A stretch of DNA of 63,722 nucleotides, the filler included, from Globobulimina sp. (lineage: Eukaryota): assembly GCA_003354225.1 (NCBI GenBank). It is 47 parts of 47 records of this genome, joined end to end, with 100 filler letters (N's around TTAATTAATTAA, not from the genome) between each part and the next. Parts side by side here need not be neighbours in the genome. Positions count along the whole stretch, not along the records: positions 40,751 to 42,008 come from PIVH01019967.1; 46 more parts are not named here. The stretch is one strand, 5' to 3'. Shown here piece after piece: positions 3,199-52,847 of this stretch. The notes under the pieces are model-generated. The model was not told the DNA's origin and did not search any database. It saw only the letters and a program-made list of their open reading frames with translations. Position 1 is the first letter of the stretch; each line of letters opens with the position of its first letter. The position numbers were made by a program, and so were the translations under genes.

Positions 3199-3298
3199 TC
3201 GGAAACATATACAAATCATAAATATCCCTCTAAAAAGTATACTACAAAGCAAAAATAAACACAAAAAAAAAACTAAAAAAAAAAAACTTGAAAAAACA

Positions 3299-3360
3299 GT
3301 GATGATTGGGATTTGAACCCAAATCTTCTTCAAAAGATGCTCTCATTGAGCTATCATCAC
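3299..3360 (-). ncRNA. Miniature tRNA-like RNA, copy 1 (62 nt, truncated anticodon arm)
   Basis: Minus strand reads GTGATGA TA GCTC AATGA GAGC A TCTT TTG AAGA AGAT TTGGG TTCAAAT CCCAA TCATCAC: 7-bp acceptor stem, D arm, canonical T arm/B box, followed by TGTTTTTT. Confidence 0.75.
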
Positions 3361-3379
3361 AAAATATTTTGGTGAAAAG

Positions 3380-3800
3380 CTGCATCGATTATATGCACCC
3401 CCACGCTCTCTTTCATAAAATACAGCATCGATGATACGGCACTTTTCTCTTAATACGGGCATCGATCGATGCTTTTCTCTCTAAATACGGCACCTATAAA
3501 ACGGTGCTATGGCACCTCGCCAAAATAACGCATCGATCGATGCCATCTCTCTCCACATTGCACCTATAGATCGGTGCTACGGCATCTCGCCAAATAACGC
3601 ATCGATCGATGCCATGATTGCCATCCCATAATACGCTGCAGTTTGATCGGTGCAGAGCACCTCATACAATCCCATATAATACGGCATCGATCGATGCATT
3701 CCCACTCTCAGTCTCTCATAAAATACGGCATCGATCGATCGGTGCTATGGCACCTCGTAAAATACCATAAAATACGCCATAAAATGCAGGCATAAAATAC
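3380..3800. repeat. Irregular array of palindromic GCATCGATCGATGC / ATACGGCA repeats
   Basis: Several full and partial copies of the 14-bp palindrome GCATCGATCGATGC, usually preceded by AATACG. Confidence 0.85.
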
Positions 3801-3878
3801 ACCATAATAACGCCATTGGGCACTATATAGCCCATAATAACACCATCGGGCACTATATAGGCCCTCATATATCACTCT

Positions 3879-3977
3879 ATAATCCGCGGCGCTCTCATCG
3901 GGCCGCAGGCCCTCATATATTCACATAATCCGCGGCGCTCTCATCGGGCCGCAGGCCCTCATATATTCACATAATCC
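3879..3977 (+). repeat. 46-bp tandem repeat
   Basis: ATAATCCGCGGCGCTCTCATCGGGCCGCAGGCCCTCATATATTCAC starting at 3879 and 3925; third copy starts at 3971 and is cut by the contig end. Confidence 0.95.
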
Positions 3978-20049: not shown

Positions 20050-20280
20050 CTGATAAATAGATCAACCTTCCGATGGGGCTAAAGTCTGAATTTGAAATGG
20101 ATGAAGAATGTCCGGATAGAACGGCGCTGATGATGTAATAAATCAAACTTCCAATCGGGCTGAAGTCTGAATTGAAATGGATGTCCGGATAGAACGGCAC
20201 TGATGATGGGATATATCAAACTACCAATTTCTCTGAAGTCTGAATTGAAATGGATGTCCGGATAGAACGTAACTGATGAT
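20050..20280 (+). repeat. ~74-81-bp diverged tandem repeat, 3 copies
   Basis: AAGTCTGAATTGAAATGGATGTCCGGATAGAACGnnnCTGATGAT recurs near 20082, 20163 and 20237. Confidence 0.9.
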
Positions 20281-27040: not shown

Positions 27041-27633
27041 CTTTGTCGCGTGTTTTCTCTTTTATTTCCGNNNNNNNNNNNNNNNNNNNNNNNNNNNNNN
27101 NNNNNNNNNNNNNNTTAATTAATTAANNNNNNNNNNNNNNNNNNNNNNNNNNNNNNNNNNNNNNNNNNNNTCTTGTTATTTTCCTACAAAATCAAAGAAC
27201 ATATTGCCGGCCATTATATTTAGCAATCTTTATATTTATTATTTAATTTATTAAAAATATATGCTCTCTTATATGATACTCGATCGATGTCTAAACTCTG
27301 TACAACTTTTATCATGGTTAATTTGGTTAAATATTCATTGCTGGTGTCAAAATATGAAGGATTGATAATTTACCATGACAACTTTGCTGGCAGCTTGGAA
27401 CTTTCGCCAACACCGTAGTTAATCGAGCCGATTTTGTCGAGCAATAAATGATGATTTTATATTTCAAACTTATCTCCTTTCTTTCAATAATTTCGTCGAT
27501 GTCTGCTGCAACAGGAGGAGGTACGAATTCTTTTAAGTTATATAGATAGAAGTCTGCTAGCTTTAATAGCTTTTTCTACTTCGATGGGTCTATTTTTATA
27601 TTTATAGGCTTAAAATCACGCTGTAACAAAGCA

Positions 27634-38566: not shown

Positions 38567-40260
38567 CTTAATTGTATATTATTATTATTGTTCTTTTATA
38601 TTTTTGTTTTTGTGATTACTGTTTTTCGTTGATTCATTAATATTGTTTTGTTAATTAATATTAAGCCTTTTTTTTGTGCTTTTGAATATATGGCACAAAC
38701 CAATTGCTGCTTTAATATTATGAATGGTAAAAAGGAACATCATGATGTACAGCTCCAAAATATGATGGAATTTTGCTTCTTTGTTTCGACTTCCAAGGCT
38801 TGACGAATTCGAAAAATAATTAAGCAAAAATATTCGTCGCAGTTGTACAAAAATATAAAAATGAAGAAGTGGATATTAATAGGAAGATCTCACCATTATT
38901 GTTACTTGTTATAATGTGTAGGAAAAATGTAACCGATGGACATTGTGGACATTGATTCATTGAATGTATATTATAATCATGCTTTTCTTTTATAATTATT
39001 TCTAATGAATTTAATTAATTATTGTTTGTGTTATATATCTTCGAAACTTAAGAAATCGTTTTTTTTGTATTATACATATTCAAACTGCAGTTACTGCACA
39101 ATATAAAATAGGAAAAGCACCGTCAGTTAGATCTGTTTTATTTGGTGAGTTTGACGCATTTGAGAAAGTTATGGTCACTCCGTGAGCCTACACAAGTTAA
39201 TTAGTCACTATGTGACTATTTGTGACTATTTAGTGACAAAAACGAAAATGAGCAACTATTTAGTAATTATTTCAATACAAAAAACGGAAAATNNNNNNNN
39301 NNNNNNNNNNNNNNNNNNNNNNNNNNNNNNNNNNNNTTAATTAATTAANNNNNNNNNNNNNNNNNNNNNNNNNNNNNNNNNNNNNNNNNNNNGATAGAAA
39401 GGAACATGATAGAGTGGCTAAGCAGAGTTGTGAAGAAGCAATGCAGTCAAGAAATGAGCTTAATGATGAATGTCTTATATCGTAACCAATATAATTTGTT
39501 TTTTAACCTTAATTTTTCTAAATTGGTGTTAACTGGTTTTTGTTAATTATCTTGTACATATCCCATGAATGAATTTGAAAATTACAGGTGTCATAAATGA
39601 GACGTTTCCTGCTTTGAAATTCAAATGTTTTTTTTTTTTTTGGTTTGCAGTTTGGATAGTTTCTGCAGCACATGACAACGAGTTAATGACAACGTCCATA
39701 AACCTGATTCAACTCAATCGGAGTTAATCGATCCACGTGCAATCGATCACCACATTTTGGGCAAATCTATGTCGCGCAAATTCAGCAACAAACTCCAAAA
39801 CTTGTCTTGTTTGATTTTGTTGAAATATAATTTCTTCTCCTTTTCTCGCTGCAATATGGTCGATTTGAATGAGGCGTAAGTGTCCAAATAAGGGATGCGG
39901 ACAAAACGGTATTTCTTCCGAAACAATCTGGGACAGTCTCGCCGTAATAACATTCGCCAAATGCGAGACTCGTCCATGAACTTAAAATAATGCAATTTCT
40001 TGCAAGTCCAAATAACAAAAGATATTCTCGTAAATTGCTGCAGCGTTCAAATAGAAAATGTTGTGTTTTTGCGCAAAATAATGTCATTCAAATAGCAGCA
40101 AAAAAAGGAAGCAGTGTGCGACGAACAAGTGGACCGTTTCGAGTCTTGTTCCACTTTGAAACATTTGCCGCCTGTTACCGCGTCGTATCTCTTTCTGCTT
40201 TTATTGCATTCATAGATATTATCCAGATTCGGCTGCAGCTGTTTGTTATTGATCAGATTC

Positions 40261-40843: not shown

Positions 40844-40908
40844 ACGGTCTCGAAAATCACTTAGTTGAGTATAGTCAATTGGATGTAGGTTCGAATCCTA
40901 CGGTGAGA
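40844..40908 (+). pseudogene. Partial tRNA-Ser(CGA)-like sequence (anticodon loop, long variable arm, T arm; no acceptor pairing)
   Basis: CT CGA AA loop; variable hairpin TAGTTGA/TCAATTG; T arm GTAGG TTCGAAT CCTAC. Confidence 0.5.
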
Positions 40909-41006
40909 GGAATGGAATGGAACGAAACGCAAACGGGTGAAATCCCCAGAACTAATTATTTGAGCACATAAATGGGCGAAATCCCCAGAACTAATTATTT
41001 GAACAA

Positions 41007-41352
41007 ATGAGAGAATAAATGCCGTCATATATTAAGGCGGCGATATTGAGAGAGTAAATGCCGTCATGTATTAAGGCGGCGATAATGAGAAAGAATCCCG
41101 TCATATATTAAGGCGGTGTGAATTGGATGCAATGCCGTCACGTATTAAGGCGGCGAGAATGAGAAAGGAAGCCGTCATATATTAAGGCGGTGAGAATGAG
41201 AGAAGGAATGCCGTCATATATTAAGACGGCGATAATGAGAAAGAATCCGCCATATATTAAGGCGGTGAGATTAAGAGAAGGAATCCCGTCACGTATTAAG
41301 GCGGTGAGAATGAGAGAATAAATGCGGTCATATATTAAGGCGGCGAGAATGA
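41007..41352 (+). repeat. Nine 36-39-bp tandem units, each with hairpin (G)CCGTC-ATATATTAA-GGCGG(C)
   Basis: Cores start near 41021, 41060, 41097, 41134, 41171, 41210, 41246, 41285 and 41324; the array is bracketed by GGGYGAAATCCCMAGAACTAATTATT at 40935, 40974 and 41380. Confidence 0.95.
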
Positions 41353-41489
41353 AAAGCAACTCATTATTTGAATATCAATGGGCGAAATCCCAAGAACTAA
41401 TTATTATGAGACGGCATACGAAGCGCCGTAGAGAAAAACCAAGCGTCGCCAGAGCACCGTGGACAGCGGCCGCGTACAAATCTATTCTT

Positions 41490-41552
41490 GTGATGATAGC
41501 TCAAAGAGAGCATCTTATTGAAGAATATTTGGGTTCAAATCCCAATCATCAC
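41490..41552 (+). ncRNA. Miniature tRNA-like RNA, copy 2 (63 nt, truncated anticodon arm)
   Basis: GTGATGA TA GCTC AAAGA GAGC A TCTT ATTG AAGA ATAT TTGGG TTCAAAT CCCAA TCATCAC followed by ATTTTT. Confidence 0.75.
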
Positions 41553-42108
41553 ATTTTTAAAACAAAAGAAAAAAACAGATATCAAGGGAAAAAATTTCGG
41601 CGTCATACAATTGATTGTTATTTTTTAATGATCCCGAAATTGTTTCACCCATTCTATAGACCCGACCGCCGATGACATCATTCCCCCATTGATGATCCCC
41701 TTAATCGCCAATATAACCCTTGAAATTTCATTCTAATTTCTTTTGTTTTTCAGTTATTTAAATCAAAACTTCAGTTCAAAGTATCTCTAGAGCTACATGA
41801 TGGACTGATTACGTGTCACTTAAATTCAGATTACCTATCACTCAGACCATAGAAAGAGTAAACATGTGATTGATTTTGCAATCTTTGAAAGTACACAAGA
41901 ATGTAATATATGAATTACAAAAGAATTAAAATTGTATTCGAATTCAAAATGTAATAAGAATATAAAATATAAATATAATTATAAAGAAATAATAACTGAT
42001 TTTCATTANNNNNNNNNNNNNNNNNNNNNNNNNNNNNNNNNNNNNNNNNNNNTTAATTAATTAANNNNNNNNNNNNNNNNNNNNNNNNNNNNNNNNNNNN
42101 NNNNNNNN

Positions 42109-43366: not shown

Positions 43367-43571
43367 NNNNNNNNNNNNNNNNNNNNNNNNNNNNNNNNNN
43401 NNNNNNNNNNTTAATTAATTAANNNNNNNNNNNNNNNNNNNNNNNNNNNNNNNNNNNNNNNNNNNNCCTGATCTTCCTTGCATTATTGTCAGTGTTCCCC
43501 TATCATACCGAAAAATTTTACTTAGCCATCGGTTATACTTTTTGCGAGATCATCAATATTAAGAAAAAAAT

Positions 43572-44495
43572 ATGGAAATCACACATCTCATTTATGTTGC
43601 AATAGCCCTTGTATTACTCTGGAAAGGCGCGGACCTGCTGGTGGACAGTGCGGCTAAAATTGCCTATACGCTAGGGATTTCACAACTTGTCATCGGCCTT
43701 ACCGTTGTGGCGCTGGGCACATCAGCTCCGGAATTTGTTGTCACTGTGAATGCTGCGTTAAGAGGCCAGCCGAACATATCTGTATCCAATATTATCGGCT
43801 CGAATATTTTCAACCTGGGCTTTATCCTGGGCGGTGTGGCCATTGTCAAGACGATTAAGACCGACAGGAAACTGGTCTGGCGTGACGGCATGGTGCTGAT
43901 TGCAGCCACATTAACAATTTTAATATTTTTGTGGGACCTGAAACTTACACGTTATGAAGGAATATTCCTTTTCGGCGGGTTGCTCTGCTATATCCTGTTA
44001 CTTTTTTTCCAAAGAGAACCTCTTGAATCTGAAGTTGAACTCACAACTGCAAAGCTCAAAGATTATGGCCTGCTTTTAGCCAGCATGGTCATGGTGGTTC
44101 TGGGCGGGCATTTTCTTGTGGAAGGGGCTGTGGGCATCGCCAAAGCGTTGGGTATTTCCGACTGGGTCATCGGGGTCACCATTGTCGCCGCCGGTACATC
44201 CGCACCGGAATTTGTCACATCCCTTATGGCTGCAATAAAAGGGCATCACGGTATTTCCGCCGGCAACCTTATAGGAAGCGATCTTTTCAACCTGCTGGGC
44301 GTTCTGGGACTGGCCGGCATCATTCGGCCCATGACCATAACCCCTCACGCCCATTCCAGCATCATTATGCTGGTCGGCATGGTTATCATCGTGGTTATTT
44401 TGTTACGTTCCGGATGGCGGCTGTCCCGTGGGGAAGGCTGTTTTCTGGTTGGTGCCAATCTTTTAAGATGGGTAATGGATTATACGTTGAGATAA
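43572..44495 (+). CDS. yrbG: Bacterial Ca2+/Na+ antiporter (CaCA family, YrbG-like)
   Basis: Two alpha repeats, GLTVVALGTSAPE...IIGSNIFN and GVTIVAAGTSAPE...LIGSDLFN; complete 307-aa ORF. Confidence 0.95.
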   Translation: MEITHLIYVAIALVLLWKGADLLVDSAAKIAYTLGISQLVIGLTVVALGTSAPEFVVTVNAALRGQPNISVSNIIGSNIFNLGFILGGVAIVKTIKTDRKLVWRDGMVLIAATLTILIFLWDLKLTRYEGIFLFGGLLCYILLLFFQREPLESEVELTTAKLKDYGLLLASMVMVVLGGHFLVEGAVGIAKALGISDWVIGVTIVAAGTSAPEFVTSLMAAIKGHHGISAGNLIGSDLFNLLGVLGLAGIIRPMTITPHAHSSIIMLVGMVIIVVILLRSGWRLSRGEGCFLVGANLLRWVMDYTLR

Positions 44496-48897: not shown

Positions 48898-49200
48898 ATG
48901 ATGAGTGCGTGTTGTATGGGTTCGGCCGGGCACAATGTGAGTGATCTATGATGAATGCGTGTTGTATGGGTTTGGCCAGGCACAATGTGAGTGATCTATG
49001 ATGAGTGCGTGTTGTATGGGTTCGGCCGGGCACAATGTGAGTGATCTATGATGAGTGCGTGTTGTATGGGTTTGGCCGGGCACAATGTGAGTGATCTATG
49101 ATGAATGCGTGTTGTATGGGTTTGGCCGGGCACAATGTGAGAGATCTATGATGAGTGCATGATGGGAAGGCCAGGGACAGTGTGAGAGATCTATGATGAA
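48898..49200 (+). repeat. 50-bp satellite, about 5 conserved copies plus a diverged copy
   Basis: ATGATGARTGCGTGTTGTATGGGTTYGGCCRGGCACAATGTGAGTGATCT at 50-bp period. Confidence 0.95.
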
Positions 49201-50054: not shown

Positions 50055-50154
50055 CGCAAAGCAACATGACATCCTACGCAAAGCAACAATGACATCCATG
50101 ATCCTACGCAAAGCAACATGACATCCTACGCAAAGCAACAATGACATCCATGAT
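50055..50154 (+). repeat. Minisatellite with alternating 22- and 30-bp units (52-bp higher-order repeat)
   Basis: CGCAAAGCAACATGACATCCTA alternates with CGCAAAGCAACAATGACATCCATGATCCTA. Confidence 0.9.
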
Positions 50155-51611: not shown

Positions 51612-52847
51612 GGCAGTGTGAAAGGAACAATTTTAAACCAGTTCTCTTTGGGTGAGTATGAGGATGTTCTGAGGGTTGCAACCACACCAGGAAGCGGAGG
51701 GCAGACATGGAAAAACCATGTATTTTGTTTAGAGATGCGGGAAACTGGTCTGGAAGTCATCGGCAGGATTGAAGATATAGCACCTGGCGAAAAAATCTAT
51801 TCAGCCCGTTTTATCGGTACGCGAGGTTTTCTTGTTACCTTTGTACAGGTTGATCCGTTATTCACAATTGATCTGTCAGATCCTGCGTCCCCAGCAATAA
51901 TTGGGGAATTGAAAGTGCCGGGCTATTCGGATTACATTCATCCTCTCGGTGAAAACCATCTCCTTACAATCGGCAAAGACGCAGATGAACGGACCGGCGC
52001 ATATCAGGGGATGCAGCTTTCAATCTTTGATATTACTGATTTCGCAAATCCTATACTCTTGCATAAAGAACTCATCGGTGACCGGGGGACTGGGTCTGAA
52101 GCACTTTATAATCACAAGGCATTTTCATTCTGGGCTGAGAATGACCTTCTGGCTATACCGGTCAATTTATTTGAACATCAAGATAAATATTCCTCGGTGT
52201 GGGATTCAGGAAGTCATACATTTACAGGACTTTATGTTTATAAAGTTACAGTAGAAAATGGATTTAAGTTTCTCGGACGTATCAGCACCGGCCCTGCTAA
52301 CGGTTATACATACTACTACAGTAATGAGTGGACCCGTGGCATTTTTATTGACGACAATGTATATGCAGTTCAGAAAAATTGGATTAACTTTGCCGATGTT
52401 TGGAATATTGCAGATACCGTTGATTATGTCTATTTAGGAGATTTCGATTTTCCGTTTTATGATGAATCAGCAACAGAACCGGCGCCGTACGGTACGGAAA
52501 GGTGGAAAATTGTTGCATCGGCAACTGAGGAATATGGATCGTGGACTGCCGTTAAGAACGCTGATGGTTCTGTTTCAGTATCTGGAGAACTGGTTACTTC
52601 AGGTTTCGTAATGTTACCTTTTGAAAATGTACCGGCATCAGCCACAAATGGGGCAATGTCATTTAATGCTGAAGGGATAGGGAGTATTGATTTTGTGTCC
52701 TTCTCTCCACAGTATAGTCTAATCATCAGTCTAACACAGAACAAATGCGTGTATGAAATAAACATTGGATTGTTCGGAAGTTCCGCAAGTTATTCAGGAA
52801 TCGCAGCAGCAAGACGTGTTAGTGGAAGCGGGGTGACAACTGATTAA
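51612..52847 (+). CDS. Bacterial secreted beta-propeller domain protein, C-terminal part
   Basis: NQFSLGEY..LRVATT, IAPGEKIYSARF, LVTFVQVDPLFTIDLSDP, GELKVPGYSDYIHP, SEALYNHKAF. Confidence 0.9.
   Translation, partial: GSVKGTILNQFSLGEYEDVLRVATTPGSGGQTWKNHVFCLEMRETGLEVIGRIEDIAPGEKIYSARFIGTRGFLVTFVQVDPLFTIDLSDPASPAIIGELKVPGYSDYIHPLGENHLLTIGKDADERTGAYQGMQLSIFDITDFANPILLHKELIGDRGTGSEALYNHKAFSFWAENDLLAIPVNLFEHQDKYSSVWDSGSHTFTGLYVYKVTVENGFKFLGRISTGPANGYTYYYSNEWTRGIFIDDNVYAVQKNWINFADVWNIADTVDYVYLGDFDFPFYDESATEPAPYGTERWKIVASATEEYGSWTAVKNADGSVSVSGELVTSGFVMLPFENVPASATNGAMSFNAEGIGSIDFVSFSPQYSLIISLTQNKCVYEINIGLFGSSASYSGIAAARRVSGSGVTTD

Follow-up and report, generated by a model that had tools for sequence, protein, structure and literature searches.

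The simple short interspersed nuclear elements (SINEs) that derive from transfer RNA (tRNA), such as the rodent ID elements, consist of little beyond a tRNA-related head, and the t-elements of plant mitochondria are tRNA-like substrates of RNase P and RNase Z that stand outside translation. The part of the source available to us presents GUT15 of Arabidopsis in the same way, as a tRNA-like molecule that serves as an RNase P/Z substrate outside translation (PMC6152437). The mascRNA and menRNA of vertebrate MALAT1 and NEAT1 are described, in the accessible portions of two accounts, as tRNA-shaped, non-decoding RNAs of about 58–63 nt with a reduced central arm; mascRNA is single-copy and is cut by RNase P/Z from a long non-coding RNA of RNA polymerase II (Pol II), behind a triple-helix element (PMC8457004; bioRxiv 10.64898/2026.01.19.700226). 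In Entamoeba, according to the part of the report at hand, canonical tRNA genes stand in strict tandem arrays with complex short tandem repeats between them (PMC2652664). Here we describe a family of miniature tRNA-like elements, named type A, of which two copies lie in a stretch of DNA from Globobulimina sp. (assembly GCA_003354225.1). The whole stretch of 63,722 nt that was analysed is called the window. For another foraminiferan, the available part of the genome account gives ordinary tRNA gene clusters and many tandem repeats, and nothing in it resembles type A (PMC3079666). No prior description of such a family was found in the literature.

Type A shares with the canonical cytosolic tRNA of Rfam (RF00005) the 7-bp acceptor, 4-bp D and 5-bp T stems, the TTCAAAT loop and a score above the cut-off; it differs in being about 10 nt shorter and in having neither G18G19 nor a regular anticodon loop plus variable region. 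With tRNA-derived SINEs it has in common the tRNA ancestry, the A/B-box region, a high copy number, dispersal among unrelated flanks and sub-families with diagnostic positions. Unlike them, it is a closed cloverleaf that includes the 3' acceptor strand, it has a T run in place of an A-rich or LINE-like (long interspersed element) tail, and it is tightly linked to upstream hairpin minisatellites; thus, the high-copy dispersal of a SINE is present, whereas its head-body-tail plan and its target-site duplications (11 loci) are absent. As far as the sources describe mascRNA, type A resembles it in being tRNA-shaped, in its reduced central arm and in its place at the 3' end of a longer conserved unit, and differs from it in its hundreds of copies, in the T run that follows it directly and in showing no triple-helix element; the resemblance is one of shape only. 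GUT15 and the t-elements, which in the material at hand are not autonomously transcribed and are single or few, contrast with the very high copy number of type A and with its T runs, which suggest autonomous units of RNA polymerase III (Pol III). The Entamoeba arrays, in so far as the source shows them (PMC2652664), are similar in placing tRNA-type genes among micro- or minisatellite-like repeats that make up a large share of the DNA; they differ in that type A would be unable to decode, that its repeats are GC-rich hairpins, and that contigs of 1.2 kb are too short to show tandem units. In its workings, type A comes closest to a tRNA mimic or to a simple Pol III repeat of tRNA origin.

Copies and abundance of the type A family

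The window (1–63722) is formed by 47 contigs of 1256–1259 nt, sorted by size and separated by N44-TTAATTAATTAA-N44 spacers; because these spacers are artificial, open reading frames (ORFs) or features that span them are artefacts. The two type A copies lie on different contigs. W1, a core of 63 nt (41490–41552, + strand), is formed by an acceptor stem of 7 bp, a D arm of 4 bp with a 5-nt loop lacking GG, a central segment of 17 nt and a T arm of 5 bp with the TTCAAAT loop, and behind it come the discriminator A41553 and a terminator-like run of five T at 41554–41558 (the two together, 41553–41558, +). W2, a core of 62 nt (3299–3360, − strand), has a loop one base shorter and a G at column 37; its discriminator T3298 is followed by G3297, six T (3296–3291) and a T-rich trailer (all of them together, 3233–3298, −), and by sequence alignment this stretch is common to two further loci, L002 and L007. 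The initial annotation had reported near-identical cloverleaves of 62/63 nt on two unlinked contigs, and both its sequences and its coordinates proved correct: each copy has the GTGATGA/TCATCAC acceptor stem, the GCTC/GAGC D stem and the TTGGG-TTCAAAT-CCCAA T arm. The three internal differences that it placed in unpaired positions fall indeed at columns 16, 28 and 37, and the discriminator differs besides. Outside the core, the flanks of the two copies can be aligned for just about 7 nt upstream and about 6 nt downstream.

The Rfam tRNA model scores W1 at 49.7 bits and W2 at 50.4 bits, where the gathering score is 29, and its alignment puts the deletion into the anticodon arm. Across eight scanned type A copies, W1, W2 and L001–L005 among them, it gives 46.5–51.4 bits, and 41.6 bits for a further one (L011, on contig C740 of bin G001, introduced below). 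The cloverleaf is the minimum-free-energy fold of both window copies (z = −3.6 for W1, −3.4 for W2) and of seven of the eight type A copies folded, and the T-arm motif GGTTCRANTCC occurs three times in the window, where 0.11 occurrences are expected. These scores, z-scores and motif excess put the two cloverleaves beyond chance. The comparison of programs suggested by the initial annotation gave a divided answer, since Rfam accepts the window copies as tRNA and ARAGORN calls no tRNA there, anywhere else in the window or in any copy of 62–64 nt. Apart from tRNA, no Rfam family reached its gathering score in three scans of whole contigs or loci. A covariance model built from six copies, R1, gives W1 97.9 bits and W2 91.1 bits, and found no third type A copy over the whole window; its matches at 27310–27379 and 40034–40101 (18–19 bits) lack either the D or the T arm and were dismissed as chance.

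Type A is a dispersed and very abundant family of hundreds of copies at least. Contigs of four sequencing runs, belonging to one sample of one study, were aligned to 41380–41700, and in one run, X1, 201 contigs pile up on 41488–41558 with unrelated flanks. The summed word depth in X1 amounts to 18,091–39,433 over this core and to 137 in unique flank; it falls off on both sides, with the rise beginning at 41457, and the loose ends before 41488–41491 and after 41551–41558 agree poorly, with T-rich sequence behind. The conserved pair proposed in the initial annotation is therefore replaced by a high-copy repeat, an outcome which that annotation had itself listed as one that could count against it. 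A pattern scan of metagenome contigs provided four more copies, L001–L004, all from one public whole-genome shotgun project. With a 24-nt word from the T arm and acceptor, no viral contig was matched, and two contigs (L005 and L006) were found in G001, a bin titled MAG: Gammaproteobacteria bacterium (MAG, metagenome-assembled genome), from which all loci L005–L014 come; L012 shares its contig with L005, and L014 with L006. The search with a covariance model, also suggested beforehand, was fruitful: in G001, where 150 of 1453 candidates were scored, R1 gave at least 12 matches, seven of them further type A copies of 63–64 nt with 73–90 bits (L007–L013). In total 13 distinct type A loci were aligned, and the count of T runs given below covers 14 loci of the family.

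The type A copies of G001 lie on AT-rich contigs of 0.6–1.6 kb, whereas the contigs with its ordinary tRNAs measure tens to hundreds of kb; being AT-rich, short and unlike the large bacterial contigs, the small ones are taken as mis-binned eukaryotic DNA. The bin as a whole mixes large bacterial contigs with many AT-rich ones of 0.5–2.8 kb that carry eukaryote-type tRNA-Leu and tRNA-Ala genes and tRNA-like families, and the latter look like host DNA mis-binned into a bacterial MAG. The tRNA-Leu and tRNA-Ala genes on such AT-rich contigs are ordinary, GC-rich and provided with normal D loops.

Conserved helices and a variable centre

In the alignment of 13 copies the acceptor, D and T stems are nearly invariant, and the variation is found in the D loop, the T loop and the central segment. 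Among the seven copies found with R1, 3/224 stem cells differ from the consensus vs 30/224 non-stem cells, with variable columns numbering 3/32 in stems and 12/32 elsewhere; this is not the even spread over stems and loops that the initial annotation had named as a sign against its proposal. Two of the three altered stem cells form a compensatory change in the D stem of L012, from GCTC/GAGC to GCTT/AAGC. The proposed search for covariation gave this single pair with changes on both sides within type A; it is weak as proof, because 52 of 500 shuffles reach the same count. In the window's own sample, variants that make up at least 5% of the depth occur just at 41520, 41521, 41523 and 41526, with indels at 41517, 41520, 41524 and 41544. 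A relative of 73 nt, present in L006 and L014, has the 5' acceptor strand, on which the search made no demand, preserved at all seven bases and has strongly diverged D and central arms; ARAGORN calls it 'Phe aaa'.

The shrunken anticodon arm TCTT/AAGA described in the initial annotation, 4 bp with a loop of 3–4 nt beside a variable region of 4 nt, is intact in 10 of the 13 copies; as a conserved helix it does not stand. The end of the central segment reads AAGAAGAT, and a second register, ATCTT-N7-AAGAT, is possible, in which 5 bp and a loop of 7 nt would stand directly between the D and T stems, leaving neither nucleotide 26 nor a variable region. This second register is perfect in 9 of the 13 copies and is chosen by ViennaRNA for L007 and L009, while for L008 the program prefers 7 bp closed by a loop of 3 nt, and for L013 and W2 it prefers 6 bp and a loop of 4 nt. 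A T at column 37 (W1, L001, L003 and L004) creates a C·U mismatch in the second register and favours the 4-bp one. The common variants A>T at 41521 and G>T at 41523 hit the 3' strand of the TCTT/AAGA stem, and no frequent partner change accompanies them. The middle of the molecule is therefore a free-running hairpin or linker rather than a conserved mini anticodon arm. If the central 17 nt are read as an anticodon loop, near-identical bodies display TGA, TAA or TCA in loops of 3 to 7; the variable would-be anticodon and loop size argue against decoding. A regular anticodon arm, of 5 bp and 7 nt plus nucleotide 26 and a variable region of 4–5 nt, is not present.

The elbow and the discriminator also depart from those of a canonical tRNA. 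In tRNA the elbow is conserved, with G18 and G19 in the D loop and T54-Psi55-C56 in the T loop, and so is the discriminator. In type A the D loop is AAAGA, AATGA or similar, without GG; the T loop in G001 is TCTAAAT or TCCAAAT in five of seven copies, with changes at positions 55/56; and the discriminator is free, with A, T, C and G all present across copies.

T runs, hairpin minisatellites and composite units

A run of at least four T begins at +2 or +3 behind the element in 10 of the 14 loci, vs a background of 3.8–4.1% (binomial P ~1e-11, a value that treats related copies as independent, which they are not). The run starts at +7 to +9 in two other loci and is missing in the remaining two, one of which has just 13 nt of flank. 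Type A thus has the T run expected just behind a type 2 Pol III gene. The proposal of the initial annotation is upheld in so far as type A is a tRNA-derived cloverleaf whose T arm resembles a B box, which is directly followed by a T run and which probably does not decode. The shared SINE body or tail that it had mentioned as adverse evidence did not appear, as the shared sequence ends at the T run. Nor did the recommended search for target-site duplications, which omitted three loci with too short flanks, bring any above shuffles in 11 loci, the longest flank repeats being of 4–8 nt.

The link to upstream arrays of hairpin repeats, also claimed at the outset, is well borne out: minisatellites of GC hairpins lie directly upstream in 9 of the 10 type A loci that have at least 500 nt of upstream sequence (W1, W2, L001, L002, L007–L010 and L013, the arrays of L007 and L008 being established by reading and BLAST; L012 has none). 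For one canonical gene, a tRNA-Leu on a similar contig, no such array exists within 600 nt upstream. Upstream of W1 there is a minisatellite at 41006–41352 (+), recognised from the sequence, with 9.1 units of 39 nt, each containing a hairpin GCCGTC-N9-GGCGGC. Upstream of W2 stands a block of several GC-hairpin minisatellites, 3361–3977 (−), with units of 70, 30, 46 and 12 nt and the hairpins GCATCGATCGATGC, GGTGCCATAGCACC and GGGCCTGCGGCCC; its unit types recur in L002 in a different order. The units vary in sequence between loci and follow a common plan, a GC hairpin and then an AT-rich motif such as TATTTATTATGG; since this motif reads ..AATAAA.. on the opposite strand, the unit amounts there to a word like a poly(A) signal followed by an antisense GC hairpin. 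The arms of the array hairpins change together, as in GGGCC-TGC-GGCCC vs GGTCC-TAC-GGACC and in GGCGGC-GAA-GCCGCC vs GGCGAC-GMA-GTCGCC. Example units may be seen at L007:128-586 and L001:871-953.

Part of the family also shares sequence beyond the element. W1, L001, L003 and L004 form a sub-family with a common leader of 35–75 nt, aligned in the window at 41417–41489 (+) and ending in ...TACAAATCT(A/C)TTCTT; L004:30-169 matches window positions 41417–41558 at 89%. W2 and L002 form another, with a common T-rich trailer of about 45 nt. L002:995-1101 matches 3364–3254 at 91%, and L007:581-707 matches 3366–3233 at 84%. L007–L010 have in common a composite unit of about 1 kb at 73–92% identity, in which about 300 nt of 5' region come first, then the array and the tRNA-like element, and finally a T-rich stretch followed by a common 3' motif; of all this, only the tRNA-like element and the T-rich trailer are common to the window. 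The conserved region of about 300 nt before the array covers L007:1-100, L008:419-720, L009:1-110 and L010:5-295; it contains a CTATAAT motif, then CCATCCATCC..ACGAGACACAAACGATCGAAGAC, and two stem-loops, and its role might be that of a promoter or of the 5' portion of a non-coding RNA. Two ORFs adjoin copies of the first sub-family: in L001, one at 3-851 runs on the same strand as the element, with its stop 148 nt upstream, and in L003 one begins at 324, about 270 nt downstream of the element. At the inspected loci, the sequence just before the tRNA-like part shows no stabilising element rich in A or U.

Type 2 promoters of Pol III consist of a B box, GGTTCGANNCC, and an A box, TRGCNNAGTGG. 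The B-box region of the window copies, GGTTCAAATCC, has one mismatch to that consensus. Owing to the enriched T run and this B-box-like T arm, a Pol III mini-gene is the simplest mechanism, and we think, with about as much confidence as doubt, that type A is a family of non-decoding, tRNA-derived Pol III mini-genes of 62–64 nt, judging from sequence features. The internal promoter would be made up of the B-box-like T arm and a partial A box, and transcription would end at the T run after the discriminator; the product would be a tRNA-shaped RNA of about 65–70 nt. Its minihelix of acceptor and T arm could be a substrate for RNase P, RNase Z and the CCA-adding enzyme, while the reading of codons would be impossible. 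The family has multiplied beside, or together with, the GC-hairpin minisatellites, and its RNA may either render a service to the host or promote the spread of the repeat itself. Family membership, abundance, the sparing of helices, the excess of T runs and the tie to arrays are observed here; transcription, processing and the lack of decoding are what we infer.

Several points weigh against this interpretation. The A-box region, TAGCTCAAAGA, matches its consensus only partially, and in five of the seven G001 copies the B-box region is GGTCTAAATCC or GGTCCAAATCC, so that the T-loop variants alter the core of the B box and weaken the case for an internal promoter there. The sparing of helices has to be taken with care: columns 3–14 and 43–61 are invariant in L001–L004 by construction of the search pattern, the counts of stem and loop cells are not independent events because the copies are related, and the conservation of stems may partly reflect recent amplification. 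As the run data consist of assembled contigs and not of reads, they reveal many distinct junctions rather than a copy number. Finally, the shared leaders and trailers and the G001 unit of about 1 kb mean that the units of duplication exceed a Pol III transcript.

A second explanation lies at the level of DNA, and we find it somewhat unlikely: a composite repeat, made of 5' region, hairpin VNTR (variable number tandem repeat), tRNA-like part and T-rich tail, would have the cloverleaf as its conserved end, spreading by transposition or segmental duplication, or else a TFIIIC-binding or boundary site, and any RNA made from it would have no role. The very high copy number amid unrelated flanks, the sub-families with diagnostic positions and common leaders or trailers, the composite unit of L007–L010 and the shuffling of array unit types between W2 and L002 are all in agreement with such a repeat. 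It leaves unexplained, however, why three helices are spared on both strands and why the D stem holds a compensatory pair; there are no target-site duplications above chance in 11 loci, no A-rich tail and no common body, and a site for TFIIIC would depend on the B box, the very part that is variable in G001. Alternatively, the element could be a processing signal, as in MALAT1/mascRNA or the plant mitochondrial t-elements, at which RNase P cuts a longer Pol II transcript, begun at a promoter upstream of the array, on the 5' side of the element, sets its 3' end and frees a mini-RNA. We regard this as quite unlikely, because a T run right after the element is expected of Pol III and not of Pol II read-through, because no A-rich or U-rich stabilising element is visible directly upstream, and because in the window's own sample the element is far commoner than any given upstream leader. 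It would nevertheless explain why the element stands at the 3' side of the arrays in 9 of 10 loci and account for the conserved region with its CTATAAT motif ahead of the array in L007–L010, and helices that are kept while the B-box loop varies suit a structural signal better than a promoter.

That type A is an odd but working tRNA, with four arms, a 5-bp anticodon stem and a 7-nt loop and lacking nucleotide 26 and the variable region, seems very improbable. Copies with G at column 37 do fold their central 17 nt in that way, with U at the U33 position and a purine at 37; yet the loop has 6 nt in W2 and L013, L008 forms a 7-bp/3-nt hairpin, 4 of the 13 copies have the C·U mismatch in the middle of the stem, and the would-be anticodon shifts among near-identical bodies. 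The free discriminator and the D loop without GG speak against it as well, as do the rejection of all copies by ARAGORN and the existence of canonical tRNA genes on similar contigs. Scarcely credible is an artefact or foreign DNA, be it the tRNA of an organelle, organellar DNA copied into the nucleus, contamination from bacteria or a chimera of the assembly. The stems are AT-rich and the D loop is reduced, which does recall organellar tRNAs, and some copies come from a bin labelled Gammaproteobacteria; against this, the adjoining ORFs of L001 and L003 use the standard code and look nuclear, the G001 copies sit on short AT-rich contigs unlike the large bacterial ones with ordinary tRNAs, the run data contain hundreds of different flanks, and viral contigs gave no matches.

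Other tRNA-like kinds, the rest of the window and meaning

Besides type A, four other kinds of tRNA-like elements were noticed, B to E, which have the D-arm style of type A and each their own acceptor stem and central hairpin. Type B (L004:1061-1127 on the − strand, L016:419-486 and L017:564-630) has a CTGGA...TCCAG central arm with loops of 4 to 13 nt, and it may simply descend from another tRNA. Type C (L015:541-610 and L047:9-78, the latter grouped as L047/L054) has 6 bp and a 4-nt loop in L047, with two compensatory acceptor pairs between L015 and L047. In these type B and C loci a plain hairpin of variable size takes the place of the anticodon arm. Type D (L050–L052) has an 8-bp central stem and a 9-nt loop, and a degenerate copy aligned with these three lies in the window at 40859–40930 (+), on the contig of W1 and 580 nt upstream of it; its D and central arms are largely deleted, it scores 15 bits only, and its T arm GTAGGTTCGAATCCTAC and 3' strand GGTG are followed by GGAAT-like repeats. 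Type E, which is Cys-GCA-like (L049, G001:C185:1070-1268; L053, G001:C112:636-829), carries about 125 nt of inserted sequence where introns usually lie and has AT-rich stems and a TTTAAAT T loop. At L004:221-258 and L004:540-575 there are hairpins whose arms repeat acceptor words of type A (..TGATGATGG...CCATCATCA..) without the inner arms; R1 matches them weakly, with 10–11 bits, and they may be collapsed derivatives of type A.

One may go further and suppose that this protist lineage has a class of 'tRNA-scaffold' RNAs, in which selection keeps the acceptor, D and T arms and the anticodon arm has been swapped for an arbitrary hairpin: a central part of 11–17 nt in kind A, loops of 4 to 13 nt in B, 6 bp/4 nt in C and 8 bp/9 nt in D. 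Such RNAs would come from hundreds of Pol III genes coupled to hairpin VNTRs and could be modules processed by RNase P/Z, for example 3'-end or priming tags of repeat transcripts, or decoys for tRNA-binding proteins. We think this extension unlikely. The comparison between kinds gives seven compensatory pairs from three sequences, five of them from type B, in an alignment fitted to the model; these changes reflect a common tRNA architecture and alone are no proof of selection after the reduction.

Regarding the rest of the window, long open frames in the standard code occur on many contigs, with eukaryotic domains such as protein kinase, tyrosinase and HMGL-like, and the best EukProt matches of the HMG-CoA-lyase-like ORF have 67% identity. 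On contigs of higher G+C content (0.42–0.45) there are a Beta_propel (PF09826) protein at 51612–52844 (+) and a Na/Ca exchanger protein at 43563–44492 (+); the few window contigs of this kind may be a prokaryotic admixture of the assembly, and the source is regarded here as an AT-rich protist assembly that is somewhat mixed. Minisatellites are also present at the start or end of other contigs (1–143, 20056–20280, 48898–49199 and 50055–50154, with units of 12, 73, 50 and 22–52 nt). Arrays of this sort appear to be plentiful in the genome and are a probable cause of breaks in the assembly.

For practical work, type A will be a source of confusion in tRNA annotation, since it is accepted by Rfam and rejected by ARAGORN, and its presence points to contigs of eukaryotic origin that were wrongly binned into a bacterial MAG. 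If transcribed, it would bear as well on the joint evolution of tRNA genes and minisatellites, for which Entamoeba offers a comparison. Type A would then represent a natural tRNA mimic of great abundance, reduced to three helices and a free central hairpin, in a protist genome that has been little explored, and it would help to show how the Pol III factors, RNase P, RNase Z and the CCA-adding enzyme are used outside translation.

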